From Clostridia bacterium (GTDB taxonomy: Bacteria; Bacillota; Clostridia; UBA1381): a stretch of DNA of 62,019 bases. The position numbers were made by a program, and so were the translations under genes. The stretch covers positions 1 to 62,019 of the forward strand of contig JAXEIW010000042.1 in NCBI GenBank assembly GCA_034101885.1, in the 5' to 3' direction. Positions 20,143-62,019 of the stretch are shown here, piece after piece (the stretch's first letter is position 1; the number at the start of each line of letters is the position of its first letter). The notes under the pieces were generated by a model, which was not told where the DNA came from, made no database searches, and saw nothing but the letters and a program-made list of their open reading frames with translations.

Positions 20143-20265
20143 CAATAAATTTAAAATTTGTAATTTTATTTTAAACATATGCATAAGATTTATTATCACC
20201 GCCGAATTATCAAAACATACTTTAAAAAAAACAGTCATTGTTATACGGCGGAATGGGGGATTTTT

Positions 20266-31831: not shown

Positions 31832-31864
31832 TTAAAAATTGCCGATGGCATATGCCATCGGCAA
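31832..31864 (-). terminator. Strong rho-independent terminator ending the giant surface-protein operon
   Basis: 26-nt perfect palindrome TTGCCGATGGCATATGCCATCGGCAA followed on the minus RNA by UUUUUA. Confidence 0.85.
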
Positions 31865-33883: not shown

Positions 33884-36235
33884 TTATTGGGCTGATGCTA
33901 TAGGCATACAATTGCTTAAATTATTCCAATAGAATACTTTCATCACTGTCGGTATTCCTGTCGTGTCGCTAATCTCAACAGGGATTTCCTTTGTTTCATA
34001 CGGTGAAACAGAAATATTTTCATAAACAGCCGTTCCCAAAAGCTTATTATATTCGGAATATACCGCTGCAACTATAATTCCGTCTGCCTTTCCGTCAACT
34101 GTATTAGTTATAACGGCAGTAGCGGTTTTTGCATTCAAGTCAATGTCCTTCAGCTGCACAGAACAATTGGTTACTCCCACAATTTCCTCTGTACCTGTCT
34201 TGTCTGCAAACTTATACACAACAAAATCATCAAGTTCAACTCCCGCTATTCCAAAGGATATACCAAATACGCCCTTATCGTTCAAAGCAACGCCCTCTGT
34301 TCGCTGTGTGTATTCAAACTTTCTTCTGTTTACAAAATTGCTGTCCATAACCTCTATAACCCATTCTGCCTTTCCGTCGGCATAATAAAGTCTTGTATGA
34401 AGGTCTTTACCCAAAAACCACTCATCCGAATAAAATGTACTTCCTGCCGATGATGCTCCTGTTTTCATGTCTATTCTTTGAAGGTCATATGGTTTTATAT
34501 TTCCAAACACACTATTAATTCCTACAGAGCCCCATACACCTTTATCCGAATCTCTGTCGATGGTTCCGTCATCTGTCATTGGAGCATTCAAATATATGTT
34601 AAAAAGATTATAATTTCCCAAGGAAGTTTCCGGCATCGTTATATCTGCCTCAACATAATATCCGCTTTCATCAACATAATCGGCTATATTATTCGGAATG
34701 AATCTTCCTCCCTGACCTCCCGCTATAAATTTACCGTTCGACAGTTCTCCCGAACATCTGCTTGTATTCCACTTACCGGTTAGTGTTGATTCACTTGTAT
34801 AATTGAAGTCATCGGCAAAAACAGTTTCAAATTTAAACTTATACTCCTTCGACGCATTTAACGTTCCGGTACTGTTTTTTATACCATCCACAACAAGGCT
34901 GTATGTCTTATCCAGATAATCGGTAAAATAATAATCATTCGGCAAAGCAAGTGTAACCCTTTTACCGTCATCGGAAACTGTTTTTTGAACATTCACGTTC
35001 TGTCCCATACAATACAGTGAAATCTTATTAAGCTCCTGCGCGTCTACCGCACTGCTGAAATCCACCGTAATGCTCTTGTTCTTAACTACACCTTCTGCCA
35101 TTCTCAATACATAATCGTTGTTAACATTATATGAAAGAACATCAAAGGTCGGATCGGGTTCTTCCGAAATATCGTTAAACTTATATACAAGATAATTATC
35201 AACCTTTACTTTTGCATATGATCCGCAGTACATACCGAATGCTCCCTGTGTATTCAGGCTTTCTTTTTCAAATATAAAGGAACGTCTTGTCCCGGTATAT
35301 GTGTCATTATCCTGTAAAACGTCTGCAATCAGTTCTCCCACACCGTCTATATAAGATGCTCTCAGATGCAGCGGACGCTCTGTTAATCCCACCCCCGAAA
35401 AATATGAGGATACCGGAGTAACCGAACCGTCTTCATTGACAGTCGGCGTTTGTACATTACCCGTAAGCATATCAATTCTCTTTGCTATAACTGCTGATTT
35501 TGACAGTGAAATATTATTCGTTCCAATACCTGTAAAAATATTATCGGAATTATTAGTATCAAAGCCGTTTGAATTATTGTCAGCAAAATTAAATACAAAG
35601 TTAAAATTATTCTCGTCGCTTGCATACGGTTCATTTAATTGTGTGACATCCGCTTCAACATAATAATTCCTCTGTTTCAAAAAATCCGCATAAGCTTTCG
35701 GCCATATTCTTCCGTTTCCGCTCAAAATCAATGCTCCGTCTTCCAGTGAAGGAGTATTTTTGATCTCCCAGACATTTCTCAATTCTGTTTCGCTTGCATA
35801 ATCAAAGCCGTCATAAAAAATCTTTTCACATTCGAACTTATAGCTTGCAGAAACAGTTTCTTCTCCGGCTTCATCAGCCACACTATCTATATTGATTTTA
35901 TAGAAGCTGTCGAAATTATCCAAAAAATCAATTTGTTCCGGTAAAATTACCGTTACCGTCTTTTTATCGGCAGACAACGTCTTTTCCGTCTCTACGAGAG
36001 AATTGTTTTTTAAGAATGTAATTTTACTTAGGTCATTTTCATTGACCGCCTCGGAAAAGGAAATGTCTACAGTCTTATTTGTTACCGCTCCGGCAACGGT
36101 TTTCATAATGTACTCGTTGTTCACCTTATAACCTTCAACCGCAAAGCTGCCGACAGCATCTTCTGACGCAGCAAAGGTGGAATACGGTGTAGCCATCATA
36201 ACACCTGCCAGGATACCTGCTAAATTTTTTTTCAT
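33884..36235 (-). CDS. Secreted protein of unknown function with an internal duplication ((Ig-like + jelly-roll) x2) and a C-terminal beta-sandwich module
   Basis: Signal peptide ..GVMMATPYSTFAAS. There are two collinear ~330-aa repeats (FAVEGYKVNNEYIMK...IFYDGFDY...VDNYLVYKF and FDVLSYNVNNDYVLR...VFADDFNY...LDDFVVYKF). ATG 36235 is preferred over GTG 36244. Confidence 0.6.
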   Translation of the reverse strand: MKKNLAGILAGVMMATPYSTFAASEDAVGSFAVEGYKVNNEYIMKTVAGAVTNKTVDISFSEAVNENDLSKITFLKNNSLVETEKTLSADKKTVTVILPEQIDFLDNFDSFYKINIDSVADEAGEETVSASYKFECEKIFYDGFDYASETELRNVWEIKNTPSLEDGALILSGNGRIWPKAYADFLKQRNYYVEADVTQLNEPYASDENNFNFVFNFADNNSNGFDTNNSDNIFTGIGTNNISLSKSAVIAKRIDMLTGNVQTPTVNEDGSVTPVSSYFSGVGLTERPLHLRASYIDGVGELIADVLQDNDTYTGTRRSFIFEKESLNTQGAFGMYCGSYAKVKVDNYLVYKFNDISEEPDPTFDVLSYNVNNDYVLRMAEGVVKNKSITVDFSSAVDAQELNKISLYCMGQNVNVQKTVSDDGKRVTLALPNDYYFTDYLDKTYSLVVDGIKNSTGTLNASKEYKFKFETVFADDFNYTSESTLTGKWNTSRCSGELSNGKFIAGGQGGRFIPNNIADYVDESGYYVEADITMPETSLGNYNLFNIYLNAPMTDDGTIDRDSDKGVWGSVGINSVFGNIKPYDLQRIDMKTGASSAGSTFYSDEWFLGKDLHTRLYYADGKAEWVIEVMDSNFVNRRKFEYTQRTEGVALNDKGVFGISFGIAGVELDDFVVYKFADKTGTEEIVGVTNCSVQLKDIDLNAKTATAVITNTVDGKADGIIVAAVYSEYNKLLGTAVYENISVSPYETKEIPVEISDTTGIPTVMKVFYWNNLSNCMPIASAQ

Positions 36236-36413
36236 TTTGTTCACTCTCTTTCTTTATAATAAATTTTATATATAGTTTTACAAATTTATATATTTTCTGA
36301 AGGTGTATATTCCGCTGTCATAAATTTGTATAAACTTTATATCTTAAGTATACAATAAAATTCGGAATTGCGCCACGGACAATTTGGTATAAAACGGACA
36401 AATCAAATTTTTT

Positions 36414-38144
36414 TTAAAGCAAATCACATATTTTACTCAAAACTGCCGCTGCCTCCGCTCTTGTGGTATTTCCTTTAGGCTTAAAGCTGCCGTCATGATA
36501 ACCGTTTACAAAACCTAAAGACAGTGCTTCCTCAATATAATTAACCGCCCAATCCTGAACAGTCGTATAATCTGTAAAGCTTGTTATACGAATAATAATC
36601 TGCGGCTTTTCATTTTTAAGCTCATACGCTCCCATTGCAATCTTAACCATTTCATCACGGCTTATGGGACTGTTAGGTCTGAAAACTTCATCATGAGAAA
36701 TCAAATTGCTGTCAAGCGCAGCTTGTATATAACCTGCATACCAATCTTCTGCCTTTACATCTTTAAATGAGCCGTCATATTCGGCAACGCTGAGATTAAG
36801 TATCCTTACAACCATTTTGACAAACTCCGCTCTTGTAACATTTCTGTCGGGATAAAACTTTCCGTCGCTGTACCCGCCTATAATATTTTTGTCCAGAAGC
36901 TTATTAATATGGCTTTCCGCCCAGTGAGATGTCACATCTTCAAATCTTTTTTTATCCTTTTCACTCACCTCCGGAACAAAGCTGTTCTGACTGCCTGTGT
37001 TGTCCGCTGCCGGTTTTTGAGTATAGCTGTTGGTTCCGCCGTTGTATCCTCCGCTTCCTCCACCGTTTCCTCCGTCCTGACTCTGATTTGCAGCCCTAAT
37101 CGTTATTGTTACAGGCTCAGAATCAGATGACGCGCCGTCAACACATATGCTTTTAATTACAAAATCTTTTATAATCACATCAGAAGTAATAGAGCTGCTT
37201 GATGTTCCGCTCAAATTAAGATTAATTTTATTATCTTCCTTTGATGCGCTGACTTGCAGCTTTAAACCGGAAGGCAAAGCCGAATGTGTATAATGTAAAT
37301 CCTTGGTTAAAAGCCTGTCAACAGCAGCTTTTCTTGTCAATATCTGCAATTCCTTTGATGATGTTGAAGTATTCACCTGTGTTTTATTTGACATATTAAA
37401 CACAATTGTGTTGCTGTTCAGATTAACTTTCTTCGAATAGTCAAAGGAATAAATCTTGACTCCGTCAATAACCGCCGAATCGGTATTTGCCGCTCCTCCG
37501 GTAATAATATTACTTTTTATCTTGATTTGAACAGGAACGTCCTCTGTAAACTTTTCCCCGGTGTTTCCGGAAAAAGATATGATAAGCGTATTTTTATTCT
37601 CTCCGTAAAGCGAATAGGAAAACTCTTTCGGAAGATTATAAAACTCAACACAATCAGACGGAATACTGCCTGACAGAATTTCCGCATTACTAAGCTTAAT
37701 TCTTATTAAATTAAAATTCTCATCCAAGGCGCCCGTTTCCTCTGTTAAAAGCTCTCTGTTAAGCAGCACGGCACCGATAGGCGCAACCCTTTCGCTAAAG
37801 GGTACAGTAAACTCAAAGCTTTCCTCCGCTTCTCTGCAGGACACCGCCGCAGTATAGCTGCCATTTGAATATTCCGATACGTCAAGCGCAAAGGAAAAAT
37901 CTCCGCCCTTAACCGATTTTGTCATATCCGCGTCGATAATATTCCCATCCTTTTTTACAATTAACCCTACAGGGGCTTCCGCCCCTATATTACAATTGCC
38001 GTTTATCATAAGCTTACTGTTGACGCTGTCCTTTACCGTATTTGAAATATTAACGGTAACGTCTGCGTCGGAAAATGCAAAAACATTCGTAAAGGAAAAA
38101 ATCATACACAGCACAACCATGCAGGAAATTGATTTTCTTAACAT
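36414..38144 (-). CDS. SLH-domain cell-wall-anchored protein (three C-terminal SLH repeats)
   Basis: It has a signal peptide and a G/S/N-rich linker GGNGGGSGGYNGG. The SLH repeats are FEDVTSHWAESHINKLLDKNIIGGYSDGKFYPDRNVTRAEF, FKDVKAEDWYAGYIQ... and FTDYTTVQDWAVNYIEEALSLGFVNGY. ATG 38144 has correct SD spacing. Confidence 0.8.
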   Translation of the reverse strand: MLRKSISCMVVLCMIFSFTNVFAFSDADVTVNISNTVKDSVNSKLMINGNCNIGAEAPVGLIVKKDGNIIDADMTKSVKGGDFSFALDVSEYSNGSYTAAVSCREAEESFEFTVPFSERVAPIGAVLLNRELLTEETGALDENFNLIRIKLSNAEILSGSIPSDCVEFYNLPKEFSYSLYGENKNTLIISFSGNTGEKFTEDVPVQIKIKSNIITGGAANTDSAVIDGVKIYSFDYSKKVNLNSNTIVFNMSNKTQVNTSTSSKELQILTRKAAVDRLLTKDLHYTHSALPSGLKLQVSASKEDNKINLNLSGTSSSSITSDVIIKDFVIKSICVDGASSDSEPVTITIRAANQSQDGGNGGGSGGYNGGTNSYTQKPAADNTGSQNSFVPEVSEKDKKRFEDVTSHWAESHINKLLDKNIIGGYSDGKFYPDRNVTRAEFVKMVVRILNLSVAEYDGSFKDVKAEDWYAGYIQAALDSNLISHDEVFRPNSPISRDEMVKIAMGAYELKNEKPQIIIRITSFTDYTTVQDWAVNYIEEALSLGFVNGYHDGSFKPKGNTTRAEAAAVLSKICDLL

Positions 38145-38156
38145 TTTCATACCTCC

Positions 38157-41100
38157 TTATCTTTCCATGCAAACCACAAAAGCTGCCGTTCCGTCAATAA
38201 CAACCATATAAATATCCTCCGAAACAGCTTCTGTTATATCTGTTTTTTCAAAGAAAGAAAACGTTTTGTTTGTTTTCACCACAACACAGTTCTGTGCAAT
38301 CGGAGTCCATTTTTCCTCACCGCTCAAAACCGTTTTTATATTTGCATCTCGATAGGCCGAGGCAACGCCGTAATATTTATATTGAAAGGTTGTTTCGGAA
38401 GAGCTTGTCTCGTCAGATTCGTTGAGCTTTAAAAGCTTTCTGATTACAATTGTTTTACTGTCTAAAAGAGCTCCCTTTCTGAAATATATAATATCGCCTT
38501 TTTCTACAATATTATTGTTGTATTTCAGTTCTTTTTCCGAGGTTACATATGATGTCCCCGATGTATCGTATATCGTATAAGCATATTTGACGGCTTCATC
38601 CTCTTCATCATATATCTGAGATATTTCTCCCACAATACCGCTGTAGCTCTTTGAAACGGCCGTATTGTTAATCGGAGATGTTATTAAAACAAATTCAGCG
38701 TTAGGTCCGTCATTAATTGTCATAACCTTTGTCGAATTAAACACAACACCGCCCAATTGTGATTTGGTAATAACAGTGGGATCAAAATTAAGTTCATCGT
38801 CACAGGTTATAAGAATTTTATCACTGTTAAGCTTATAATACTGTCTGGTTTTTGTTTCGGAATCCTGACCTAATATTATATTATAAGTCGAATTATATGC
38901 AACGTTATCCGATATGCTAAAGCTGTAATCCCAGGTCACTTCATTTATTTCCCTGATTTTATTCCCCTTGATTATAAACTTGTACAAGCCGCTTCCGTCA
39001 GTCTTTTTTGCATTTGCAACAGCTGTTTCAAAGGACACTCTCGGATAGAAAATATTTTTATCCGAAGAATTATACACCAACTGTTCCTTTTCAAGTTTTC
39101 CGTCCTCTATAACCCCTACAGACATAACTTTTTCGCCGTCATCATTTTCATCTACTCTTCCGAATACAATTCCGTAAACCTCTCTGTTTATACCCTCCGT
39201 ATACATATATCGCGCTCTGCCCGACATATCGGTTATGATAGTGACCTCCGCCGATATATAATCGCTCACCTGTTCATTTGAGGAATATGAAAAGCCGTTA
39301 TTTTTACTTATATAAAATTCCTTGTCCGAAATATATATCCTTTGATCTCCTATTATAAGAGCATCACTGCTCACACCCGAAAGAGTACCCTCAAAACAGG
39401 CATCCGAGCCGAATATATAAATTACACCGTCAATCTCTGCATAGTCTATAACCATTCCTTTTTTTATGCCCGAAAAAGAGGTTTCCTTCCCGTTAACAAC
39501 TGCCACTATCCTTTTATCCTCTGTTGAAAACATACTTACATCGTCTTTATCCTTTTGTATTCTTATGCCGTTTCCCACCATGTTTTCTATAAGTCCCAGT
39601 ATATTTACTCTGTAATCATCTGCGGCATTTCCGAATATTTCAAGCTTTACGACAGCGTTGTCTTGAATTTCGACTCTTACATATCGGTCAACTATATCGA
39701 TAATATCATCAGCTGCGGCCTTTGTTCTGTTTAAATATACCTCAAGCTTTGATTTATTAATCGTCAATGTATCCTTATAATCAAAAAATGAAATCTTAGA
39801 CAGTTTTTTTACTGCCACAGGCTCTGTCTGCCGGTTGTTGTATTCCGATATAACTCCGTAAAACACCTCAGAATTTTTATAAGGATACATATACTCAACC
39901 GTTTCATCGTCTAACCACAGATATTGAGTTGTACCCTCTATATTAAGCTGGGTAATTCCTTTTGCCAAGGTGCAGCTGTCTATACTGCCGTCCTCCACAG
40001 TCTCATAAGTAATCTGTCTTAAATCTGTATCTGCCAGCCGAATCTTTACCAATTTCTCATCAAGATGATAGCAATCCTTAAGAATAGTGTAGTCCTCGTC
40101 CGGCATTAATGTTATCTTTTCCGCACCCGTAACATTTATCTTTACCATGGGAGCGGTAAGAGCATTTACAAGCAGTGCAGCCGCGTCCTTTTGCGTCAGA
40201 TATTGATTTATGCTGATTACATTTATATCGTCAAGCAGTTTCTTTGAATATGCCAAATTAATATAATTTCCGTTTCCCAAATCCTTATATCCCAACAGAT
40301 TGCATATCACCGTAACAGCTTCTTCAAGAGTTATTTTCCCGTCAGGGCGAAATTTTTCTCCGGACTTTCCGTCTATAATTCCCATTTCATACGCTGTTTC
40401 TATAACATTTCTTCCTGCATGATTCTCCCCGACATCACTATACGGAAGCTCTGCACCGCTGCCCGATATGTTTATATTTTTAAGCAGCAAAGCGCTTGCT
40501 ATAAACTCATATTTATTTGGATATGACTTTTCATCGTATTTCTTCATGTTGCCGTACAGAGCGTCAAGGTATGTAAGCTTACGGATATTTTCGTTATAAA
40601 GCTTATCTGTTGACTTCTGAGTATTATTTCCCTCATATTTATAAATCTTTATATCGTCTATATCCATTTCATAATTTTCCTCGGCCAGGCTGAATTTTAT
40701 ACCTGTCAGACTTTTTCCCGCAAATCTCGGAGCTGCCTGACTCAGGCTATTCGAATCAATATACTTTGTTATAAGAACGTTGTCCCAATAAAAGCTGATT
40801 TCCGATGTTTCTGTATTAAATATAAATTTCAGGCTGTTCCACCGGGACTTTATATTTCTGTAATCGATATATGCCGTTCCCAGTGTATGATACCCTATAT
40901 CTTCTCTGACCGGATAACATAATGCATCGTTACCATAACCGTGCGAAGACCTTATTCTGATATTTGACGGCCAGTATAAAAACTCCGTAAACTCACCGTT
41001 ATCAAATTGAAGCGAAACAACCGGTGTTGAGTTGTAGCTTGATTTACACTTAAATTCAAAAACAAAGTTTCCTTCCGTTTCGGTCACAACAGTCGGCTGC

Positions 41101-41306
41101 TTATTGTCATCGGGATTATACCACACATTCATACAGCTTCCGCCGTTACCGCTTACAATTGAATATTCGCCCGAAATGTCAATGCTGTTTTCAAAGGTAC
41201 ATTCATAAAAGCTTCCGCGCATTTCTTCTTCATATGCGTAACCTGTAATTACTGTCGAAGCTAAAAACATAACCGCTGCAAGAATACAGCTTATAATTTT
41301 ATTCAT
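38157..41306 (-). CDS. Secreted 1049-aa protein with N-terminal jelly-roll module and an internal SLH-like region
   Basis: Signal peptide MNKIISCILAAVMFLASTVITGYA. Jelly-roll brackets FYECTFEN...IDDIKIYKY. SLH-like YSDVGENHAGRNVIETAYEMGIIDGKSGEKFRPDGKITLEEA. The start overlaps the upstream stop by 8 nt. Confidence 0.6.
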   Translation of the reverse strand: MNKIISCILAAVMFLASTVITGYAYEEEMRGSFYECTFENSIDISGEYSIVSGNGGSCMNVWYNPDDNKQPTVVTETEGNFVFEFKCKSSYNSTPVVSLQFDNGEFTEFLYWPSNIRIRSSHGYGNDALCYPVREDIGYHTLGTAYIDYRNIKSRWNSLKFIFNTETSEISFYWDNVLITKYIDSNSLSQAAPRFAGKSLTGIKFSLAEENYEMDIDDIKIYKYEGNNTQKSTDKLYNENIRKLTYLDALYGNMKKYDEKSYPNKYEFIASALLLKNINISGSGAELPYSDVGENHAGRNVIETAYEMGIIDGKSGEKFRPDGKITLEEAVTVICNLLGYKDLGNGNYINLAYSKKLLDDINVISINQYLTQKDAAALLVNALTAPMVKINVTGAEKITLMPDEDYTILKDCYHLDEKLVKIRLADTDLRQITYETVEDGSIDSCTLAKGITQLNIEGTTQYLWLDDETVEYMYPYKNSEVFYGVISEYNNRQTEPVAVKKLSKISFFDYKDTLTINKSKLEVYLNRTKAAADDIIDIVDRYVRVEIQDNAVVKLEIFGNAADDYRVNILGLIENMVGNGIRIQKDKDDVSMFSTEDKRIVAVVNGKETSFSGIKKGMVIDYAEIDGVIYIFGSDACFEGTLSGVSSDALIIGDQRIYISDKEFYISKNNGFSYSSNEQVSDYISAEVTIITDMSGRARYMYTEGINREVYGIVFGRVDENDDGEKVMSVGVIEDGKLEKEQLVYNSSDKNIFYPRVSFETAVANAKKTDGSGLYKFIIKGNKIREINEVTWDYSFSISDNVAYNSTYNIILGQDSETKTRQYYKLNSDKILITCDDELNFDPTVITKSQLGGVVFNSTKVMTINDGPNAEFVLITSPINNTAVSKSYSGIVGEISQIYDEEDEAVKYAYTIYDTSGTSYVTSEKELKYNNNIVEKGDIIYFRKGALLDSKTIVIRKLLKLNESDETSSSETTFQYKYYGVASAYRDANIKTVLSGEEKWTPIAQNCVVVKTNKTFSFFEKTDITEAVSEDIYMVVIDGTAAFVVCMER

Positions 41307-44757: not shown

Positions 44758-44773
44758 GCAAACCACCCCTTTT

Positions 44774-48832: not shown

Positions 48833-48853
48833 CCGATTTTCCTCCTTATAACA

Positions 48854-49522
48854 TTATTTGTCCAATACTTTATCCATATTTTTACAGACATTTGTCAGAT
48901 TAAATATTATTTCCGCCGCCTGCAGTCTTGTAATTGCCTTGTTCGGTTCAAAATTATCCTTAGCCCCATACAAAGCCTTATAATCGGTAAATTCAAGTCT
49001 TGGCACAAAACCCAGCATGATTCCTCTTATGATATATCTTTTAGCCCACTGCGGAATTTGCGGATAATTCTGCAAACCTCCGATTATTGTTGAAGAATTA
49101 TATTTCAGTTCTCCGTATTTGTTTTCATATACGGAAACAAGAATTTTTGCCGCCTCACACACCGTTATATTATTATTCGGTTTAAATTCGCTCCCATAGC
49201 CGTTTATAATACCTCTGCCAAAAAGACAGGAAACATCATGGTAATAATATGCATTGAAACTGACATCGGAAAATTCCGAAGTATAATTATTTTTATCATA
49301 TCCCATAGCTCTCACAACCATAGCGCAAAATTCCGCTCTTGTCACATTAACGTCCGGCGAAAATTCCGATGGACCTGTTCCGTTTATAATCCCGGCATCA
49401 TATAACGCTTCAACAGCCGGTTCAAGCTCATTTTCAGCCAGGTCGGAAAATACCCCTTGACCGAATACCGTACAGCTAAAAACAGATATGCTTGCCAATA
49501 TTAAACTTAAAAGCTTTTTCAT
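48854..49522 (-). CDS. Small secreted SLH-only protein (222 aa)
   Basis: It has a signal peptide. SLH repeats FSDLAENELEPAVEALYDAGIINGTGPSEFSPDVNVTRAEF and FSDVSFNAYYYHDVSCLFGRGIINGY, plus a third degenerate one. No other domain is present. Confidence 0.75.
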   Translation of the reverse strand: MKKLLSLILASISVFSCTVFGQGVFSDLAENELEPAVEALYDAGIINGTGPSEFSPDVNVTRAEFCAMVVRAMGYDKNNYTSEFSDVSFNAYYYHDVSCLFGRGIINGYGSEFKPNNNITVCEAAKILVSVYENKYGELKYNSSTIIGGLQNYPQIPQWAKRYIIRGIMLGFVPRLEFTDYKALYGAKDNFEPNKAITRLQAAEIIFNLTNVCKNMDKVLDK

Positions 49523-49540
49523 TATAACTTCACTCCTTTT

Positions 49541-52500
49541 TTATTGCAAAATCTTTCTTTCCGTAAGAGGACGCATTTTCTGCACCTCACTCCACACAAA
49601 TAACCTTACCTCATGCTTTTCGATATTGTTTTCAAACTCAAAATCATATTTTGACGCATTTCTCAAAATTCCTCTTGACAATTCAATAAACCGGTCCCCG
49701 TCATACATTCCCGCAAATATCCGGCATTCCCCGTTAATATTGTAAACATCGGTACTAAGCAGATTTTGGGATATTGTCACATTCTCAGCATATATATCCC
49801 CTTGAGCCGCTTTCAGTAAACGTGATGAATTGTCTATTTTGGATTTTATATCTTCAGAGAAAAATTTTGTCATATCGTCATACTCCGCTTTTAACTCCGA
49901 AACCGCTTCTTTGTCGGACAAATCAAGCATTGAAATCTTTCTTTCCATATCATCAAGCTGCGACTTTACCGTAATGTTTTCTATCTTTGCCGTTCCGGCT
50001 GCATTTCTGATTATTTGAAGTGAGTTTAGCGCTCCGGCATCTTTTAACGTTATATAATCATCCGAATATTTTTCATCTTGCTCAGTCTTTGAATATTTGT
50101 CGAGTTCTTTCCATTCTCCCATACTGTTTTTATACCATATTCTCATCTGTAAATCGTAAGGATTATATTGAAGTTTAAACTCCGTTCCGTATTTTGTATT
50201 AAAATCCCATTGGGTGTTTAAAAAATGGCCGTACGGGTATCTTGCACCCAGCTGATTTACACTGTAATTGCATATAAAATTAATGTTGTTTCCGAAACAA
50301 AGACTGATATTTCCGAATTTTTCGGCTGTCAATTTAAATTGTATTTCCAAAACATCATCATATATATAATCAAGCGAAAATCTTTTGTCTATTCCGAAAG
50401 CAATATCCAACGGATTTTTTCCGGCATTTGCACTTACAGCCTCCTCTGTTACCGAAAGCACATAATTAAGTTTTTCGTCACAGGCAACATCAAGTGAATC
50501 AGAAAGCGTTTTTCCATCGGGATAGTTTAATGTCATACTTGCAACAGTATATTTTATATCATCATCATATAAAAGTACGGCAGTGTGAATTTTAACCTTT
50601 CCGCAGTATACTTTTTCCTCCGATTCAAGCCGTACATCATACTCGCCCAACATCTGCATTACCTCATCATTTACCGACAAGGTATTTTGCGTTATAGAAT
50701 ATTTTTCCTTAGATATTAACTTATCGTTTATGTATAAATCATAATCTGACGCAGTATTGTCAAATATAAAATCAACGCTTCCCGTTCTTTCATAGACGTC
50801 GTTTTCAACAGCGGTGAGAGAATACTTAAATTCCGTTTTTGCACTCTCATATGCTGTATAGAACTCCTGCATATCCGCATATTCATTGCCCTTAAGCTTT
50901 TCACACAGCAAAGCGCTGTCTATGCTGTCATGCGTTATAATTCCGTCAATATCCTTTATTTTTTCAAGCTGCTCCGCAACCATATTCGCATCGGTTCCCG
51001 AATTTACCATTGATATAAAGCCCGAATATAAGTCACCGATATATTTTCCGTATTTGAAATACGTCTCCGGGATTTCATTCTCAGCAGCTTCGTTAACCGA
51101 TAGTGTGATGCTCGTGCTTGTACCGTAAAAGCTCTTCACAGATACTCTGTATTCTCCTGCACAGGCAAACAAATCCGCATTTATCATGAGCCTGTTTTTT
51201 TGTTCCGGGCCATTATTGTCTATAACGTCATAATTCAGATAATAGTCATAATATTCGTGCAGCTTTCTCCCGTTTAAATATACGCTCTCAATTCCCACTC
51301 CCTCGTTAAAATCAAAAACCTTGGAAGTGTTGGCGGTATTGCCGCCTATATGTCTTAGACCTATATCCTCAACGGCTTTTTCGGTGTATATTCCGATTTT
51401 TGAATAATCCTGATATTCCACTCCCAATTCCCGGGCACGACTCGGCAAAAGCTGAAAATCGCCATCGGAATAATCCGCAAATCCTATGTCGGTGTCATAA
51501 TATGTATTGTTGTAAATTCTGCCATATTTTTCGTCAACAGGTATACTGTTGCTGTCATATTCCGGCACTTTTTTTCTGAGTGATATATTAACAAACAAGT
51601 TATTATAGCATTCTGTCATTGTCTGTGTAAAGTCCGTTTTTTCATTCTTCATATAGTTAAGCGTTTCATAAAGCTGAGGAAAGCTTTCCTCCCATACCGT
51701 TATATTTTCATAAGCCGGCGGCGCAACGGTATAATAATATTTAGGATATGCACTCGGCAGTGCTATTATCTGCTCAAAATTCATTCCCTTATTTTTATAC
51801 AAAGCATATGAATTGCCGACACCGACATTCTCTACATCAATATAAATATTGTTTGAATAATAATTCGGATACAGTGCCATGCCTGTTGACGCCATAGGAA
51901 TACTTTCAATCAAATTAAACTGCATATCCTTATACATATCTCCGTTATCATAATATACAGCGGTTCTTCCCGCATACGGAGCGCTGCCGCATCTCGGATC
52001 ATCCGTACGGGTATCATGGAAATAGTTATAGCGTATTTTATCACCAAGGTTTGACCCCTGATAATTTATATATATAATTCCCATATCCTCCAAGCCCGAG
52101 CATAAACAGTCGCAAAATTCATTGTAGACAATATTTGTGTTTATTATGCTTCCGCTTATTGCGCTTCCCAAACAATACATAAACTTGTTATTTCTAATAT
52201 CAAAGTCCGCTCCCGTTAAAATAAGACCTGAACCGTAAGTGTTTGCGTAAATACCCGATTTTTTTACAACATTATTTTCAAATGTAAAATTGCAGCCTTC
52301 AAGAGTAAGCGCGTTTCCGCTTTTCACCTCACAGGCAGGATAACCGGTATTTAAAAATTCACATCCGTAAATCGAGTGATTTTTTCCGTTATATCCTGTC
52401 TGATAAAAGCTTCTGTACCCCGTTGCTTCATCGGTATTAAGAGGCTTACTGAAAATCATTTGCGATGCTGTATAACCGTATTGTCCGATTGACACTCCCA

Positions 52501-54556
52501 TACCGGAACAATTTTTAAATCCACAGTTTTTTATATCTATATACTCTCCGCCCATTATCTTTATAAAAGAGCCTTTTGTCATATCAAAACATATTCCTTC
52601 AAAAGATATGTTGCTGCAATTATTAAAGTTAAGAAAATATTTTTCACTGAAAGTTGTTACCTTTACCTGCTTATCTTTAAAATCATCTTCACTGTAAACA
52701 TATATAATTCCTTCCCTTGTTATATAATACTCGTTTTTGCAGTCAAGCTCAGATAAAACATTTTCAAAAAAATACCTGCTTCCCTTAACAGGATATACAC
52801 TCGAATCCGCACTTGCCAGCTTAACTGTCATATTTTCATTATCTATTTCAGCCACTCTGAAAGATTGATAAAAGAAATATGTACACCATGCCCCTGAAAT
52901 GAGAATATCATCGGTATTCTTCCAGTTTTTAGCATTTTCATAATTTATTTTAAATTCAGGACGGGTAAGCGTCAGTGATGAATTTTGAGGATCAACGCTG
53001 CCCTTTTCTATCACATCGCCTACAGACAGATACGTTGTATATGGGTTTTCCGGATATTTTTCATTTTCCGTCTTATTCGGGTATCTTGCCAAGTCAAGCT
53101 GAACATCGTCAATGCTCACCGACATCCTCTTTGGTATATTATTGCCGTCATACCCGGCGTTTTTTAATTTCCCGGACTTAAATTCATCAAGATTATAGTC
53201 CAGTTCATCTGCTGTTATTCCCGCCTGTTTTAAATCGTATTTATAAATTTTCCCAACGCTCGATGCAGGTATTCCTGCCTCCTGCGCTTCATCCGCTCCC
53301 ACTTTCAAAAACTCATCGGAGGAAATGCTTTTTCCGCCCTTTAAAACAGGCTTCTCATTTTCGTACGCTTTGTATGTAATGCTTGAAAATACATTCCCCG
53401 AATCATCTTGTGTAAAATCAACAGTCCTGTCTATATCATACTCGCCGCCGCGAAAATATACCGTAATATCTGTATTTTTATTTTCCATGCTGCGTATTTT
53501 ATCACGAGCACCCTGAATGGTTTTCAGCGGATTATTAATATCTCCCGAATTATTATCATCACCCATTGGAGATACAAAAATTTGTGTATTATCTTCCTCA
53601 TTCAATTCCTCATAGGCATAAATATTCAAGTTATCAATGACCGCTGTCGCATTTGTACCTCTGGTTTTGAAGGCTATTGCAGGTGTTATGGAAGAATCAT
53701 AGCTAAAGGATAATGTATCTGTTTCCTCTCCGTTAGTTACAGAACAGCTTGCCGTATTACCGTTTACAGAGGTTTTAAATCCGCAGTAAAATCCACCGAT
53801 ACTCATACTTTTGTTATCACCTAAATAGGTAATTCCATCCTCTTTAAGACTTAGATTTCTTATATAAAAGGTCATTTTGTCGGCAGATGTCGTAATATAC
53901 GGTGCCGAAAGACCGTTGCCATAATAATTTCCTACCGTCAAACCGCACTGAAGACTGCTTCCGGCGTTCAAAAGTTCTGTTTCTCCTTCAAATACAAATC
54001 TATTCAGATTTGCAAAATCCTTTTTTAAATTCAAGCTGCCTGTATTAAAGAGAAGCCGCGGAATTGCAACGGCAGTAGACGCTAAACTCATTTTCATTTT
54101 TTTATTGTCTTCTTCCGTAATAAGACTTAATGCTCCGTTGTTCCCCGCATCGGCGCCGTTTGCTCCCGAAATCCAATTTTCATATAATGCGTCACTGTTA
54201 TCATAATCTTCAAAATCCTCCGAAAAATAGGATTTCAGCATAAAAGTTTTTTTTACTCTGTAATCCTCTGCCGTTATTACAGCGCCGTATCTTTCATTAA
54301 GTAAAAGCTTTTCGGATAGTTTTGCATAAGCTCTTTTCCCTGTTGCTTCAAGAGCAACGGTCTGAACAGTTCCGTTTTTATCAACCAAATTAAGCGTAAC
54401 GGGAATATATTCCAAATCCGTATTAAATTCCAATTCTATATAATCCCGCTCAGCATACATTTCCACAAGCTCCGTACTGCTTGTGTTTTCTGCCGACACT
54501 GTAACTCCGCCGCAAAAAAACACAGCTGCCATCAATATGGATATAACTCTCCTCAA
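49541..54556 (-). CDS. Secreted right-handed parallel beta-helix protein (~1670 aa) with Ig-like + jelly-roll N-terminus
   Basis: Signal peptide (M)RRVISILMAAVFFCGGVTVSA. The cap is VSPMGDDNNSGDINNPLKTIQGARDKI...VYFRGGEY...ITYKAY. PbH1-like repeats include ISFEGICFD..IKNCGFKNCSGMGV...GLEDMGIIYINY. The start is uncertain: TTG 54556 best fits the SD AAAGGGGGGTG, and GTG 54565 or TTG 54598 are alternatives. Confidence 0.7.
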   Translation of the reverse strand: MRRVISILMAAVFFCGGVTVSAENTSSTELVEMYAERDYIELEFNTDLEYIPVTLNLVDKNGTVQTVALEATGKRAYAKLSEKLLLNERYGAVITAEDYRVKKTFMLKSYFSEDFEDYDNSDALYENWISGANGADAGNNGALSLITEEDNKKMKMSLASTAVAIPRLLFNTGSLNLKKDFANLNRFVFEGETELLNAGSSLQCGLTVGNYYGNGLSAPYITTSADKMTFYIRNLSLKEDGITYLGDNKSMSIGGFYCGFKTSVNGNTASCSVTNGEETDTLSFSYDSSITPAIAFKTRGTNATAVIDNLNIYAYEELNEEDNTQIFVSPMGDDNNSGDINNPLKTIQGARDKIRSMENKNTDITVYFRGGEYDIDRTVDFTQDDSGNVFSSITYKAYENEKPVLKGGKSISSDEFLKVGADEAQEAGIPASSVGKIYKYDLKQAGITADELDYNLDEFKSGKLKNAGYDGNNIPKRMSVSIDDVQLDLARYPNKTENEKYPENPYTTYLSVGDVIEKGSVDPQNSSLTLTRPEFKINYENAKNWKNTDDILISGAWCTYFFYQSFRVAEIDNENMTVKLASADSSVYPVKGSRYFFENVLSELDCKNEYYITREGIIYVYSEDDFKDKQVKVTTFSEKYFLNFNNCSNISFEGICFDMTKGSFIKIMGGEYIDIKNCGFKNCSGMGVSIGQYGYTASQMIFSKPLNTDEATGYRSFYQTGYNGKNHSIYGCEFLNTGYPACEVKSGNALTLEGCNFTFENNVVKKSGIYANTYGSGLILTGADFDIRNNKFMYCLGSAISGSIINTNIVYNEFCDCLCSGLEDMGIIYINYQGSNLGDKIRYNYFHDTRTDDPRCGSAPYAGRTAVYYDNGDMYKDMQFNLIESIPMASTGMALYPNYYSNNIYIDVENVGVGNSYALYKNKGMNFEQIIALPSAYPKYYYTVAPPAYENITVWEESFPQLYETLNYMKNEKTDFTQTMTECYNNLFVNISLRKKVPEYDSNSIPVDEKYGRIYNNTYYDTDIGFADYSDGDFQLLPSRARELGVEYQDYSKIGIYTEKAVEDIGLRHIGGNTANTSKVFDFNEGVGIESVYLNGRKLHEYYDYYLNYDVIDNNGPEQKNRLMINADLFACAGEYRVSVKSFYGTSTSITLSVNEAAENEIPETYFKYGKYIGDLYSGFISMVNSGTDANMVAEQLEKIKDIDGIITHDSIDSALLCEKLKGNEYADMQEFYTAYESAKTEFKYSLTAVENDVYERTGSVDFIFDNTASDYDLYINDKLISKEKYSITQNTLSVNDEVMQMLGEYDVRLESEEKVYCGKVKIHTAVLLYDDDIKYTVASMTLNYPDGKTLSDSLDVACDEKLNYVLSVTEEAVSANAGKNPLDIAFGIDKRFSLDYIYDDVLEIQFKLTAEKFGNISLCFGNNINFICNYSVNQLGARYPYGHFLNTQWDFNTKYGTEFKLQYNPYDLQMRIWYKNSMGEWKELDKYSKTEQDEKYSDDYITLKDAGALNSLQIIRNAAGTAKIENITVKSQLDDMERKISMLDLSDKEAVSELKAEYDDMTKFFSEDIKSKIDNSSRLLKAAQGDIYAENVTISQNLLSTDVYNINGECRIFAGMYDGDRFIELSRGILRNASKYDFEFENNIEKHEVRLFVWSEVQKMRPLTERKILQ

Positions 54557-54590
54557 TAACTTCACACCCCCCTTTATAAAATAACTGTTT

Positions 54591-57500
54591 TTAGTCAATT
54601 TTTAATGAATCATATATCTGAGAAAGATAACTTACAATGGTTTTTGAAACCTCACTCGAAATGTTTTGTTCATCATCAGATATAACTATTAACCCGTTCG
54701 AATCATAAGTAATCGTTTTATTGAATATTTTCTCTGCATCTTTTAAGGATAAATATAAACGGTCATTTTCTATAAATACAGGGAAAACAAGTTTTGTATT
54801 TTCATTCTTATATAACATATAGTCATTTTGAGGAGCTAATAAACAGCTTTGGACACCATCCGTTATTAACGCTGTTTTCTCGTTTTCGTCCCAGCTAACC
54901 TGCAAATTCAAACATTCGCAGATAAATCTCACCGGCAAATAGACTGCACCGTCATATTCCAGCGGAGTGACAAATATACAATCTCTGTCAATTTCCTTTA
55001 CATTTCCGTCAACTATAGCTCTTTGTGTGTCTACCGCCATAATAATATTACCTGCAAGATTTTGTTTCATCGGATCTATATACATATATCTGCTGAAAAG
55101 TCTGTCTCCGTTTTCTGACCGAACAACGGCATATAAATATTTTCCTATATCCTCATTGCGTATTTGATATGTATTTCCGTCTGCTCCGTCAATTTTCTCT
55201 GCAAACTCCCATACCTCTTCGGGCGGTGCTACCGCTCCGTTTAAATCTTCCGCATAAACCGGTTTTTTACTGCTTTTATACCATTCTGTTGTCAAAGAAC
55301 CATCATCGTTTATTGCCGAGAAAGAAGCACTTATCGTCTCTCCTGTCAATGCATATCCGCTTATTGCCGCATTGAACGGAATTGGATTTTTACCCAAATC
55401 TTCAAAAACAGGCTCGATATTTACATCGCAGTAATTTTCAATCGCAAAAAATCCTTCGTCCTCTATACGCTGTTCATCGTTATCCAGATACGAAAATACC
55501 CTTCTTCCGTTTGCAGACATAGTTATAAGTACGCCTTTGTCCACATTGATTGCCGCCAATTGAAGCGCCGTCATTTCGTTCGGTTTTATATAGATATTTT
55601 TAACAAGCGTCAGAACTTTTGAGCCGCCTGTTCTTCCCCATCGCTGAAGTTCAATTCCCGTATCCTTTATAACAATAAGGTATCCCGAATTTCCAAACCA
55701 CGAAATTTTATCCGGAGTTGCCGCTCTTAAAATAAATCCAAGCCAGTTATTTGAATCCGAAAAATCTGCCGACACATTAAATTGAATTATTTCATTAAGG
55801 TATTTCCTATCATATGCCATGGTTATAGACGGCTCTGATTTAACAAAATGCGCCTCTCTTTTATACCCACCGGTTTCGGTTTTCTCCACATCTTGGGCAG
55901 ACCAATTGTCCATATCGGCTAACGCATTGTTTAATGTAATATATTCTGCACTGCCGCTATACTGCTTTATACCCATATTCATGGATGTATCCGTTGAAAA
56001 AGTACTGTTATCCGCTGTTTTACGCACAAAGCTTTCCTTGTAACCGCCTCTCTGATTTTTAAGACCGATTTTAGCAGTATCGATTTCTTTAAATTCGGGA
56101 ATGTCTTTTTTGATTAATGAATCTTGTATAATTGTAAAATTACCGGAAGCCGCATCAACAAATCCCGGATCTTTATTATATACGGCATTATTCTCTACCT
56201 TTGAAGCGCTCCTTTCAACACCCTCTTTGTTAAGTCCCAAACCATTATTCAGTTTATCCTCAATGCTGTTGTAAACCACCGCATTGTTACAAACATCAAT
56301 TTTGTAATATTCTGCGGAATTGTTCATGTTTTTCATTTCGGCAATCTGAGGATATTTGTTTTTCCAATACTCGTTTTCTACCGGCAGCTGAGACAAATCG
56401 GCAGCAAAGGAATACTTCATAAATGTATCGGCATCCACACCGTATCCCCAAGAAAATTCATTTGTATTATATCCTGCTCCCACCGGGCTTATAACATCAT
56501 AAAAAATATTATTATTTACTCTGTTTTGTATCCAGCCCATCGCAATTCCTGCCGGAACATTTTGTATAATATTACCCTCGATATTACACCATGCAAGATT
56601 ATCGTCACAGTAAATAGCCATCTTACCCTTATAACCGTCAGCTGACACCTTTCCCGGTCCCGATGAGTTTGAAATATCATGAATATAATTATTTCTTATA
56701 CTGTTCCCGGTACAGGTAACATCTCGTCCTGAGTATATTGCCCCGCAATCCTGCGACTCAATACAAACATTATATATATCATTATTTTCTATAGTTATTT
56801 CATTTCCTCTGTAAAGTACAGCCGAGTGAGGAGCACAGCTCATTTCGCAGTTGCTTACACGCAGCCCCACGCCCGATAAGCTCACCGCCGGCTGATAGGT
56901 CTTTTTAATCATTCCCCAATTATAAAAAAGACAGTCCTCAATATAGTGGTCAGCTCTTTCAAGACTTTCTCTGTCACCTGCCGTTACTTTTACTCCCGTA
57001 TATCCTATATTTATAAAATCGCATCCGATAACTCCGAAATTCTTATCAGTCTTTTCATACCTTCCCGCTCTGTATACCGTTCCCTGTCCTATATCAATAC
57101 CATCCTTACCGATGTTTTTAAAAGAGCAGTTTTTGACAATATTATTTTCCCCTTTTTTCATGCTCATAACCGATTTCTCCGTAACACCAAAGGTGAGTCC
57201 TTCGAAAACCACATTAGATACATTTTCAAGAGTTATCATGTATTCCTTTGTAAGTGTCGGATAATATATCACCGTATTATCGCCCTCTGTGGGATAAAAA
57301 TACAGTATTGAATTTTCCGAATCAATATAATATTCTCCGGCAGTATCTATTTCATCAAGAATGTTGTAAAAATAATATGCGCTGTCCGATTTAACCCCAT
57401 AAACAGTTGTTCCGTTCAGAGTTATAAGCTTATTCTCGGTATCTATATCCGCAACAATGTTATTATCCTCCGCCCACTCAACATACCAGTAACCAAACGC

Positions 57501-58244
57501 CATAATATCTTTATTTTTTGACCATCTGTCTATTCTCTCATCACTGTAAGAAAATACCGCACCTTCCGGATTTACTTTTTCTTCATTTTTACTGTCGGTC
57601 GGCTTATCATAAACCGAATCACCCGCTTTTTTTACAATCCCGGTTTTCAAATAAACGTTTTCATTATTCTCTGTCTTATTCGGATAACGTCCCAATTCTC
57701 CGGCTGTATCACCGAAATATATCATTTTAGGCGGTGTTCCTCCGCAATATCCGAAATTGGATATTGCGGTAATGTCATCAATCCCATTTTCTTTTAAATT
57801 CACAGCACGAACATACTTTTTTGCCTTTACTGTCGGAAGTCTGTCTGTTATCTCCTTGTCCGGGAGAATAAAAGAAGATGAATCTATCGCTACACCTCCC
57901 GAAAATATGGGAGTTTCGTTCATATAAGCCTTGTAAACAATAGGGCTTTCATCGGTCCCCGAATCCTGTTCGGTAAATTCTACTGTGTCTGTTATATCAT
58001 ATATACCGTCCCTGAAATATACGGTAACTTCCCTGCCCGATAATTTATTATCCGACTTCATCTGCCGTATTTTATCTCTTGCTCCTTCCAATGTTGCAAG
58101 CGGCAAATCAATTGTTCCTTCATTTTTGTCATCTCCGAATGGAGAAACAAAAAGAGAAATCTCATTTTCAGCATATACGGGTATAGCATACAGCATAGTA
58201 AACGCCATAAAATTCGAAAGTAAGAATGCGATAAATCTTTTCAT
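54591..58244 (-). CDS. Secreted right-handed parallel beta-helix protein (1217 aa) with C-terminal copper-amine-oxidase-N-terminal-like domain
   Basis: Signal peptide MKRFIAFLLSNFMAFTMLYAIPVYA. The cap is VSPFGDDKNEGTIDLPLATLEGARDKI...VYFRDGIY...PIVYKAY. PbH1-like repeats include VKNCSFKNIGKDGI...ESQDCGAIYSGRD. The C-terminus is VDGNVKEIDRDCIFVTPLEYDGAVYLPVRFICECLNLQVSWDE. ATG 58244 lies behind AAGGAGA. Confidence 0.7.
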   Translation of the reverse strand: MKRFIAFLLSNFMAFTMLYAIPVYAENEISLFVSPFGDDKNEGTIDLPLATLEGARDKIRQMKSDNKLSGREVTVYFRDGIYDITDTVEFTEQDSGTDESPIVYKAYMNETPIFSGGVAIDSSSFILPDKEITDRLPTVKAKKYVRAVNLKENGIDDITAISNFGYCGGTPPKMIYFGDTAGELGRYPNKTENNENVYLKTGIVKKAGDSVYDKPTDSKNEEKVNPEGAVFSYSDERIDRWSKNKDIMAFGYWYVEWAEDNNIVADIDTENKLITLNGTTVYGVKSDSAYYFYNILDEIDTAGEYYIDSENSILYFYPTEGDNTVIYYPTLTKEYMITLENVSNVVFEGLTFGVTEKSVMSMKKGENNIVKNCSFKNIGKDGIDIGQGTVYRAGRYEKTDKNFGVIGCDFINIGYTGVKVTAGDRESLERADHYIEDCLFYNWGMIKKTYQPAVSLSGVGLRVSNCEMSCAPHSAVLYRGNEITIENNDIYNVCIESQDCGAIYSGRDVTCTGNSIRNNYIHDISNSSGPGKVSADGYKGKMAIYCDDNLAWCNIEGNIIQNVPAGIAMGWIQNRVNNNIFYDVISPVGAGYNTNEFSWGYGVDADTFMKYSFAADLSQLPVENEYWKNKYPQIAEMKNMNNSAEYYKIDVCNNAVVYNSIEDKLNNGLGLNKEGVERSASKVENNAVYNKDPGFVDAASGNFTIIQDSLIKKDIPEFKEIDTAKIGLKNQRGGYKESFVRKTADNSTFSTDTSMNMGIKQYSGSAEYITLNNALADMDNWSAQDVEKTETGGYKREAHFVKSEPSITMAYDRKYLNEIIQFNVSADFSDSNNWLGFILRAATPDKISWFGNSGYLIVIKDTGIELQRWGRTGGSKVLTLVKNIYIKPNEMTALQLAAINVDKGVLITMSANGRRVFSYLDNDEQRIEDEGFFAIENYCDVNIEPVFEDLGKNPIPFNAAISGYALTGETISASFSAINDDGSLTTEWYKSSKKPVYAEDLNGAVAPPEEVWEFAEKIDGADGNTYQIRNEDIGKYLYAVVRSENGDRLFSRYMYIDPMKQNLAGNIIMAVDTQRAIVDGNVKEIDRDCIFVTPLEYDGAVYLPVRFICECLNLQVSWDENEKTALITDGVQSCLLAPQNDYMLYKNENTKLVFPVFIENDRLYLSLKDAEKIFNKTITYDSNGLIVISDDEQNISSEVSKTIVSYLSQIYDSLKID

Positions 58245-58328
58245 ATTTGTCTCCTTTTTTAACATTATATTTTCAATTATTTGCATAACATCCGACCTAT
58301 CCTTAAAAAGATATGTTTATATAATAGT

Positions 58329-58371
58329 CTGCTGAAATAAATATTTTGAGAGTAAAATATTTATTCAGCAG
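58329..58371. repeat. Isolated copy of repeat hairpin A, immediately downstream of the SBP gene
   Basis: CTGCTGAAATAAATATTTTG-AGAG-TAAAATATTTATTCAGCAG forms a ~18-bp stem with a 1-nt bulge. The core matches hairpin A in 188-333 and 561-704. There is no U tract. Confidence 0.75.
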
Positions 58372-58418
58372 CCATTATATAAAATAACCACAAAATCTAT
58401 TCCATTATAACAAGTATC

Positions 58419-61944: not shown

Positions 61945-62019
61945 ATCGTTCTCCTCTTTCATATTTTGCTGATTTGATCGTCAAAATAATGCAATACTGA
62001 AAATTTTAATCCATTACAG

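Follow-up and report, generated by a model that had tools for sequence, protein, structure and literature searches.

The coupling of an S-layer homology (SLH)-anchored glycanase to uptake by an ATP-binding cassette (ABC) transporter has been described for the Xyn10A1 regulon of Paenibacillus sp. JDR-2 (PMC4765114). The locus considered here lies on a 62,019-nt stretch of DNA from an uncultured gut Clostridia bacterium (contig JAXEIW010000042.1, assembly GCA_034101885.1; "the window" below means this whole stretch). It is a cluster of ~30 kb encoding a sugar importer, three secreted enzymes distantly related to glycoside hydrolase family 141 (GH141), cell-wall anchor proteins and an esterase. 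Its core is a series of eight densely packed open reading frames (ORFs) on the minus strand, numbered P1 to P8 by ascending coordinate and transcribed in the direction P8 to P1. The whole is probably a Gram-positive polysaccharide-utilisation locus of gut-type Clostridia, composed of GH141-type enzymes, SLH proteins and an importer. What is new in it is a deep GH141-like clade, the encoding of anchors apart from the enzymes, and a set of conserved, uncharacterised accessory families; in the literature searched, no earlier description of such a locus was found, whether for GH141 with SLH or for Monoglobus with SLH.

Secreted multi-modular enzymes, SLH domains, an ABC transporter and intracellular finishing enzymes are common to JDR-2-type systems and this locus, but the parts are put together differently. 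In JDR-2-type systems the enzyme, of GH10, GH16 or GH13, itself carries the SLH triplet, whereas here the enzymes are GH141-like, the anchors (P2, P3 and P6) are separate, non-catalytic proteins, and the accessory P3 and P4 families are additional. The adjacent regulator of JDR-2-type systems is matched here only in two related loci from other organisms (L089 and L090). Similar SLH glycanase/ABC systems occur in Caldicellulosiruptor, Thermoanaerobacterium and Monoglobus pectinilyticus.

A second point of comparison is the rhamnogalacturonan (RG) locus of Bacillus subtilis, with its yesMN two-component system, yesOPQ and lplABC transporters, SGNH acetylesterases and beta-galactosidase. By analogy only, the window locus resembles it in having an LplA/DUF3502 binding protein with two permeases, SGNH esterases and a nearby beta-galactosidase, and the related loci L089 and L090 resemble it further in having a kinase and an AraC-type regulator. 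Unlike it, the window locus has no PL11 or GH105 genes; the B. subtilis locus is not known to include SLH proteins or GH141-like enzymes. Cellulosomes likewise combine several secreted enzymes with SLH-anchored non-catalytic proteins, but differ in relying on cohesin and dockerin, which were not detected here.

GH141 itself is polyspecific, with activities ranging from an alpha-L-fucosidase acting on RG-II to an endo-xylanase and endo-fucanases, and the catalytic Asp pair of its member BT1002 is D523 and D564 (PMC5593877, PMC12786026); in Xyn141E the pair is D540 and D577. The window enzymes have the same right-handed beta-helix, N-terminal cap and insertion domain as the described members (the alpha-L-fucosidase BT1002, PDB 5mqp; Xyn141E of C. 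thermocellum; the Wf141 endo-fucanases of Wenyingzhuangia), but are only ~16% identical to BT1002 in structural alignment and, by comparison with these members, are multi-module proteins of 1200-1700 aa. Their closest solved relative, PDB 9rx2 (717 aa), is, unlike them, a single module of ~700 aa.

The beta-helix proteins P8, P7 and P5

The three proteins are as follows.
54591..58286, minus strand: P8; signal peptide, GH141-like beta-helix core (aa 45-745), further beta modules, Cu_amine_oxidN1 domain (aa 1105-1198)
49541..54598, minus strand: P7; signal peptide, N-terminal Ig-like and jelly-roll module, GH141-like core (aa 340-1075), long beta-rich tail, recurrent module (aa 1595-1685)
44774..48832, minus strand: P5; signal peptide, N-terminal beta module, GH141-like core (aa 225-895), FN3-like and lectin/CBM-like (carbohydrate-binding module-like) modules, weak cadherin-like C-terminus

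They are paralogous across a core of ~700 aa (P8/P7 30% identity, E 4e-78; P8/P5 24%, E 5e-30). In phmmer searches of the PDB, all three matched 9rx2 (P8 E 5e-19, P7 E 4e-13, P5 E 4e-12), and matches to BT1002 were mainly to the N-terminal cap (P8 E 7e-13, P5 E 2.5e-5, P7 E 8e-3). A family profile made from the three cores and twelve homologues matched 9rx2 over its full length (E 2e-78), including the active-site motifs D-x-G-x-x-Y and (Y/R)-x-D-(D/N), and BT1002 in three segments (E 3.7e-35). The next families were GH120 (E 7.5e-7) and a PL9-type rhamnogalacturonan lyase (5olq, E 2e-5), the latter through the N-terminal cap only (positions 26-82). Full-length similarity to PL1, PL9 or GH28 was not found in this comparison, in which a pectate lyase (5olp) scored E 4e-4 and a GH28 enzyme (3jur) E 0.024; Pfam Pel9A-like matches among the homologues were marginal.

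An AlphaFold2 (AF2) model of the P8 core (pLDDT 80, pTM 0.86) was compared by Foldseek with a structure library that did not contain 9rx2. BT1002 was the top match (E 8e-24, TM 0.58/0.67, 669 aligned columns), followed by GH120 (E 1e-9), with capsule and exopolysaccharide (EPS) depolymerases ranked lower. A Foldseek comparison with GH141 had been proposed in a preliminary description of this DNA, which also suggested that the catalytic families may be new; that suggestion is not borne out by the profile matches, the structural ranking or the active-site residues. In the profile alignment, D523 and D564 of BT1002 (residues D528 and D569 of the chain, a constant offset of +5) fall on invariant Asp columns of the family, predicting as counterparts of the catalytic pair D513/D561 in P8, D834/D884 in P7 and D666/D705 in P5. 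All 22 sequences aligned, among them those of related-locus enzymes, have Asp in both columns. The first of the two is the D of a (D/E).G(A/G/I)(I/L)Y motif that the preliminary description had picked out in all three proteins; the motif is real, and its Asp matches a GH141 catalytic residue.

P8, P7 and P5 thus look like hydrolases of the GH141 type, if distant ones, rather than a new fold or family, with hydrolytic activity predicted from the alignments and the model. By sequence, they form a clade of their own, to which 9rx2 is a far nearer relative than BT1002. No publication on 9rx2 (deposited as "Parallel beta-helix repeat protein") was found in the literature search, and the GH141 papers found there do not mention it. 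The best homologues of P8 are 29-32% identical to it, and most homologues are single-module proteins of ~700 aa.

Anchors, accessory proteins and related loci

Exactly three of the eight proteins have SLH matches in Pfam, as had been noted before, and all three are non-catalytic.
36414..38150, minus strand: P2; signal peptide, Ig-like beta modules, Gly-rich linker, three C-terminal SLH repeats (Pfam SLH E 4e-42)
48854..49522, minus strand: P6; signal peptide and SLH repeats only, a stand-alone wall anchor directly upstream of P5 (Pfam SLH E 1.6e-23)
38157..41306, minus strand: P3; after the signal peptide a lectin/ConA-like jelly roll (aa 43-223) and a complete SLH domain (aa 235-395), with ~650 aa of all-beta structure following

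Pfam scores two repeats in P6, the whole of which (222 aa) is 31% identical to the SLH triplet of P2. In P3 it scores a single repeat, but the AF2 model (pLDDT 78) aligns with the whole SLH domains of SpaA and Sap over ~160 aa (Foldseek, TM 0.65-0.71), and a profile match to 6cwc extends across aa 233-357. Foldseek also gives lectin/DUF1080 matches for P3, and no PDB match was found for its all-beta C-terminal part of ~650 aa. A scan of the eight proteins with NCBIfam returned only partial, SLH-derived matches. From these repeats and the P3 model, P2, P3 and P6 are predicted to be wall-bound through their SLH domains.

The remaining two proteins are secreted and have no recognised enzymatic core.
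33884..36244, minus strand: P1; secreted, with a tandem duplication of a Big_5 plus jelly-roll-like unit and a recurrent C-terminal module (aa 692-786)
41299..44766, minus strand: P4; secreted non-catalytic multi-beta-sandwich protein of 1155 aa (Pfam Big_5 E 7e-6)

The halves of P1 (P1a and P1b) match each other at E 1e-45, with Big_5 at E 1.3e-10 in Pfam; PDB sequence searches with P1 and P4 gave no match. The N-terminal module of P4 (~330 aa) is 41% identical to that of P7, far above any other module pair in the locus, which points to recent duplication or exchange of a module between an enzyme and a non-catalytic protein. In an all-against-all phmmer comparison of the putative jelly-roll modules, only this pair and P1a/P1b were significant, and a general beta-sandwich common to P3, P5 and P8 was rejected at the sequence level.

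A shorter module of ~95 aa, with the pattern ...AAVY..G.L...(K/R)(V/L)F.W......M.P(L/I), recurs at the C-termini of P1 and P7, inside the secreted GDSL esterase encoded downstream and, more weakly, in P4, and also in proteins of three related loci: L001 (19536-21710), L002 and L089 (14134-18327, an esterase). Leave-one-out HMM p-values range from 2e-8 to 5e-6 and are optimistic, the segments having been picked by motif; the module has no Pfam match. The preliminary description had proposed three kinds of attachment module on the proteins without SLH repeats. The copper-amine-oxidase-N-like one is clear in P8 (Cu_amine_oxidN1, Pfam E 3.6e-15) and the recurrent beta-sandwich holds for P1, P7 and the esterase and less well for P4, while the cadherin-like one in P5 is weak (PF12733, E 0.0019, 19 bits against a cut-off of 24.2). 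It had seen no cohesin, dockerin or LPXTG signals, in agreement with the results here: Pfam matches none of the eight proteins to cohesin or dockerin, even at E<=5, and a regular-expression search for LPxT[GAS] found none.

The importer, the esterases and the flanking glycosidase complete the locus.
61000..61962, minus strand: ABC permease 1 (BPD_transp_1, Pfam E 5e-16), 63% and 60% identical to those of L089 and L090
60085..60996, minus strand: ABC permease 2 (BPD_transp_1, Pfam E 2.4e-10), 56% and 55% identical to those of L089 and L090
58419..59909, minus strand: LplA-type solute-binding lipoprotein (DUF3502, Pfam E 6.5e-9; lipobox ...AVSGC), 48% and 47% identical to those of L089 and L090
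31897..33780, minus strand: secreted SGNH/GDSL esterase, the ninth secreted protein (Lipase_GDSL_2 E 5.8e-16), with a signal peptide and the recurrent module (aa 133-223)
30314..31651, minus strand: cytoplasmic SASA-type carbohydrate O-acetylesterase (Pfam SASA E 2e-35; PDB 9h4u E 1.3e-16), no signal peptide, in a separate unit after a terminator
27438..30317, minus strand: cytoplasmic LacZ-type GH2 (Glyco_hydro_2_C E 1e-75, Bgal_small_N E 7.5e-63), its start overlapping the SASA gene by 4 nt

This context of importer, secreted GDSL esterase, cytoplasmic acetylesterase and LacZ-type GH2 was recognised in the preliminary description, and each member is supported by its Pfam assignment. The nearest solved structures are 5swa/5suo/5mlt for the binding protein (E ~1e-21) and 6hfz for the GDSL esterase (E 1.6e-13), which is also 28% identical to the GDSL protein of L002.

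Related loci were found on six independent contigs of other uncultured bacteria (L001, L002/L003, L087, L088, L089 and L090). L089 and L090 have the same gene order, with genes for an AraC-type response regulator, a histidine kinase, permease 1, permease 2, the binding protein and P4-, P3- and P2-like proteins. Their importers are 60-63% (permease 1), 55-56% (permease 2) and 47-48% (binding protein) identical to that of the window. L088 has a set of P4-like, P3-like and P2-like genes with a GDSL gene. The P2-like proteins are similar over their full length (39% identity in L088, 35% in L090, 34% in L089), the P3-like ones are 31% identical over 1008 aa in L088 and 27-28% in L089 and L090, and the P4-like ones are 28-29% identical in L089 and L090, or 23-29% over ~310-670 aa when L088 is included. 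Further on, L089 encodes a 1397-aa esterase, followed by a 217-aa SLH-only protein, 33% identical to P6, and an enzyme resembling P5 (28% identity over 1070 aa); the SLH-only gene directly precedes the P5-like one and overlaps it by 7 nt. No counterpart of P8, P7 or P1 appeared in the truncated stretches retrieved for L088-L090.

L001 (from an NCBI MAG, metagenome-assembled genome), L002/L003 and L087 have analogous sets, with two GH141-like proteins each and SLH proteins; in L087 one of the GH141-like proteins also has a Cu_amine_oxidN1 domain. The DUF3502 binding protein is present in the L001 and L002/L003 sets, and the L087 contig as retrieved starts past that position. L001 and L002 each encode a Big_5 protein of ~1000 aa, and L002/L003 a GDSL esterase. 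Across the related loci as a whole, flanking cytoplasmic glycosidases belong to GH3, GH94 or GH31 in place of GH2. G+C contents range from 36% to 50% across the contigs, so that the same set occurs in distinct organisms, which argues for a conserved, functional unit. Secreted, non-cellulosomal enzymes, SLH anchors and an importer had been proposed to form one system; their recurrence as a set on six contigs agrees with that, and in two of these the importer shares 47-63% identity with that of the window.

P3 belongs to a rare family. When its non-SLH part was searched exhaustively with HMMER against 1.84 billion cluster representatives, 23 proteins matched at E<=1e-3, 8 of the 23 being full-length at ~1000-1090 aa. 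P0152-P0173 are among the family members, and in all three contexts examined (L088-L090) the member sits in a related locus. A word-indexed search had returned SLH matches only and suggested that P3 was an orphan, which the exhaustive search overturned; with P2, too, the word-indexed search returned SLH matches only. Orthology of P3 to the SLH proteins of 900-1000 aa in L001, L002 and L087 is not claimed, since the similarity is confined to aa 277-416 (hhalign probability 96%), and the context of a further homologue, P0019, was rejected as unrelated, a lone gene. P8, P3 and P2 are each a single-member cluster in a collection of 5.8 billion proteins.

Proposed function and its alternatives

If the cluster is a polysaccharide-utilisation locus, the secreted GH141-type proteins P8, P7 and P5 and the SGNH esterase would depolymerise a complex extracellular glycan and remove its acyl groups. 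The SLH-bearing, non-catalytic proteins P6, P3 (lectin-like domain, SLH domain and long beta stalk) and P2 (Ig-like modules and three SLH repeats) would bind the wall and, with the beta-sandwich proteins P4 and P1, could keep the substrate, and possibly the enzymes, close to it. Released oligosaccharides would be taken up by the lipoprotein binding protein and the two permeases (LplABC/CUT1 type), and the cytoplasmic SASA esterase and GH2 would complete the breakdown.

The recurring esterase, with GDSL esterases in four of the six related loci, suggests an acylated glycan as the substrate, and we would guess at an acylated heteroglycan of plants or algae. The preliminary description had named an acetylated, galactose-containing, pectic or RG-like glycan. 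An acylated substrate is a reasonable expectation in view of the esterases; the galactose-containing, pectic or RG-like part is harder to sustain, with GH2 and SASA in a separate unit and GH141 polyspecific. A pectic, RG-type substrate is accordingly a tentative suggestion, somewhat on the doubtful side; it would fit the B. subtilis yes/lpl locus and a Monoglobus-like lineage.

Several observations weigh against a polysaccharide-utilisation locus of this type. The window proteins fall under the Pfam GH141_M cut-off (17.9 against 27 bits), unlike their homologue P0002, which is over it (38 bits), and they share at most 32% identity with any homologue found. Pfam recognises no CBM above threshold in them. 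By Pfam and motif search P8, P7 and P5 have no SLH, LPXTG or dockerin sequences, so surface retention of the enzymes is conjectural. The regulator of the locus is not in the window, which ends 57 nt upstream of permease 1; by analogy with L089 and L090, the expected two-component regulator would lie upstream, beyond the window end. A 169-nt gap before P1 and a hairpin after the binding-protein gene could split the transcription unit. Finally, the flanking glycosidases differ among related loci (GH2, GH3, GH94, GH31), so that a substrate cannot be transferred from one to another, and the nearest solved relatives of the binding protein, the GDSL esterase and the SASA esterase are too distant for a transfer of specificity.

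The separation of enzymes from anchors allows a refinement of the polysaccharide-utilisation locus, which it would not exclude: a surface complex independent of cohesin and dockerin, in which the SLH-less enzymes and the esterase would dock non-covalently on SLH scaffolds through the recurrent module or the Cu-amine-oxidase-like domain. It would account for the confinement of SLH domains to non-catalytic proteins, for the SLH-only gene directly before a P5-type gene both here and in L089, and for the co-occurrence of the P2, P3 and P4 families with the enzymes. The candidate docking modules also recur, the ~95-aa one on P1, P7, the GDSL esterase, the L089 esterase and the L001 and L002 proteins, and Cu_amine_oxidN1 on the L087 beta-helix enzyme. 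However, the recurrent module is absent from P8 and P5 and present on the non-catalytic P1, its p-values are optimistic owing to motif-picking, and in loci of this sort it is common for secreted enzymes to have no anchor. On balance such a complex seems unlikely. In its furthest form it would be a Clostridia surface assembly of an undescribed kind, with the rare P3 and P4 families supplying a new function, whether glycan-binding or catalytic, directed at a glycan outside the characterised GH141 range, a prospect that we likewise judge to be minor.

We think it very unlikely that the cluster serves the cell's own envelope in place of foraging, either by remodelling its glycans (secondary cell-wall polymer, capsule or exopolysaccharide) or by building an S-layer-like coat. 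In favour of such a role, the SLH proteins are many and the secreted proteins very large and acidic, the beta-helix fold is also that of the capsule/EPS depolymerases further down the Foldseek ranking, and Pfam detected no classical CBM. But the cluster adjoins the genes of an oligosaccharide ABC importer, cytoplasmic GH2, GH3, GH31 or GH94 genes and esterases lie alongside, the L089 and L090 sets stand behind a sensor kinase and an AraC-type regulator, an arrangement typical of catabolic sugar loci, and the best matches by fold and by sequence are to catabolic GH141 enzymes, not to depolymerases. That the beta-helix proteins are polysaccharide lyases or non-catalytic adhesins and not hydrolases, as the low-scoring profile matches to 5olq (cap only) and 5olp and the generic Beta_helix assignment in Pfam might allow, is highly improbable, given GH141 and 9rx2 matches 30 to 70 orders of magnitude stronger that span the whole core, both GH141 catalytic Asp residues invariant, and no PL or GH28 signature found (3jur again at E 0.024).

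Gut Clostridia have a large, uncharacterised capacity for glycan degradation, for which the polysaccharide-utilisation locus proposed here offers a concrete, conserved gene set. If its enzymes are indeed held by separate anchors, this would be a new way of building surface enzyme complexes in Gram-positive bacteria; otherwise it is one more polysaccharide-utilisation locus, extending GH141 specificity and marking the substrate niche of a poorly sampled gut lineage.

Gene layout and the rest of the window

From P1 to P8 the ORFs are 786, 578, 1049, 1155, 1352, 222, 1685 and 1231 aa long (range 222-1685 aa, 8058 aa altogether). Their coordinates are exactly those first reported, and all eight N-termini look signal-like by eye, as had been claimed, each having a hydrophobic core flanked by a basic n-region and a cleavage site of the A-x-A type. 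A Shine-Dalgarno-like motif lies 5' of each gene. The genes are separated by 6-169 nt or overlap by 8 nt. Two such overlaps had been listed, of which the one at 41299-41306 stands. The other (54591-54598) probably vanishes, as the P7 start is more likely the GTG at V12 (54565), behind GGGGGG, which would turn the overlap into a gap of 25 nt. P8 also probably starts later than its ORF, at M15 (58244), behind a GGAG ribosome-binding site; this start corresponds to the 1217-aa database entry P0001. In Pfam, the Beta_helix match of the P8 ORF scores 40.5 bits, above the cut-off.

Two structured elements bear on transcription.
31832..31864, minus strand: intrinsic terminator; 12-bp GC-rich stem, 4-nt loop and UUUUU (dG -21.4 kcal/mol, z -5.9), ending the secreted-protein unit
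58318..58380, minus strand: AU-rich hairpin of 26 bp in the gap that separates the binding-protein stop from the P8 start (dG -26.3 kcal/mol, z -9.1; 0 of 200 shuffles as stable)

The terminator, already proposed from the sequence, proved genuine on folding. Between the genes of the cluster, scanning with a consensus gave no minus-strand terminator, with the limit that the same scan overlooked the genuine one at 31832-31864; terminator-like sites in total were at chance level (12 against 10.8 expected, 13 against 10.0 expected). Tight spacing, internal terminators no more frequent than chance and a strong terminator behind the esterase gene are consistent with a single transcription unit, and co-transcription, put forward as a giant operon in the preliminary description, is a prediction on these grounds. 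The hairpin at 58318-58380 has no U-run directly 3' of it and may stabilise the upstream transcript or limit read-through, so as to give binding protein in excess of enzymes. In L089 and L090 the corresponding gaps are only 23-34 nt long and hold no such hairpin. The 169-nt gap 5' of P1 is AT-rich, and P1 may have a promoter of its own within it. No Rfam RNA families were found in the window.

The window is chromosomal, encoding DnaB, ribosomal protein L9, GdpP, SpoIIM and aminoacyl-tRNA synthetases. Among 185,579 species genomes, the best DnaB matches are from a Clostridia MAG (68%), Ca. Ornithomonoglobus (61%) and ruminant and other gut MAGs (59-60%). These relatives keep the GdpP-L9-DnaB arrangement and do not have the glycan locus. 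With single-member protein clusters and a best DnaB identity of 68%, the source lineage is poorly sampled.

A second carbohydrate cluster is found on the minus strand at 9457-20238. It encodes a GH38-like protein of 1051 aa, a 558-aa protein with no Pfam match, a LacI-type regulator, a UxuA-like mannonate dehydratase, an SDR protein, a cytoplasmic GDSL esterase, an RraA-like aldolase and a sugar-isomerase-like TIM barrel, a content that suggests uronate or mannoside catabolism. Two class-I aminoacyl-tRNA synthetases of Glu/Gln type, one GlnRS-like and one GluRS-like, are encoded as a pair on the minus strand at 2613-4286 and 4290-5948, 3 nt apart. On the plus strand, a XerC/D-like tyrosine recombinase (21051-21935) lies beside SpoIIM (20179-20865) in a short stretch of low G+C content (0.32), and the recombinase is probably a housekeeping one.

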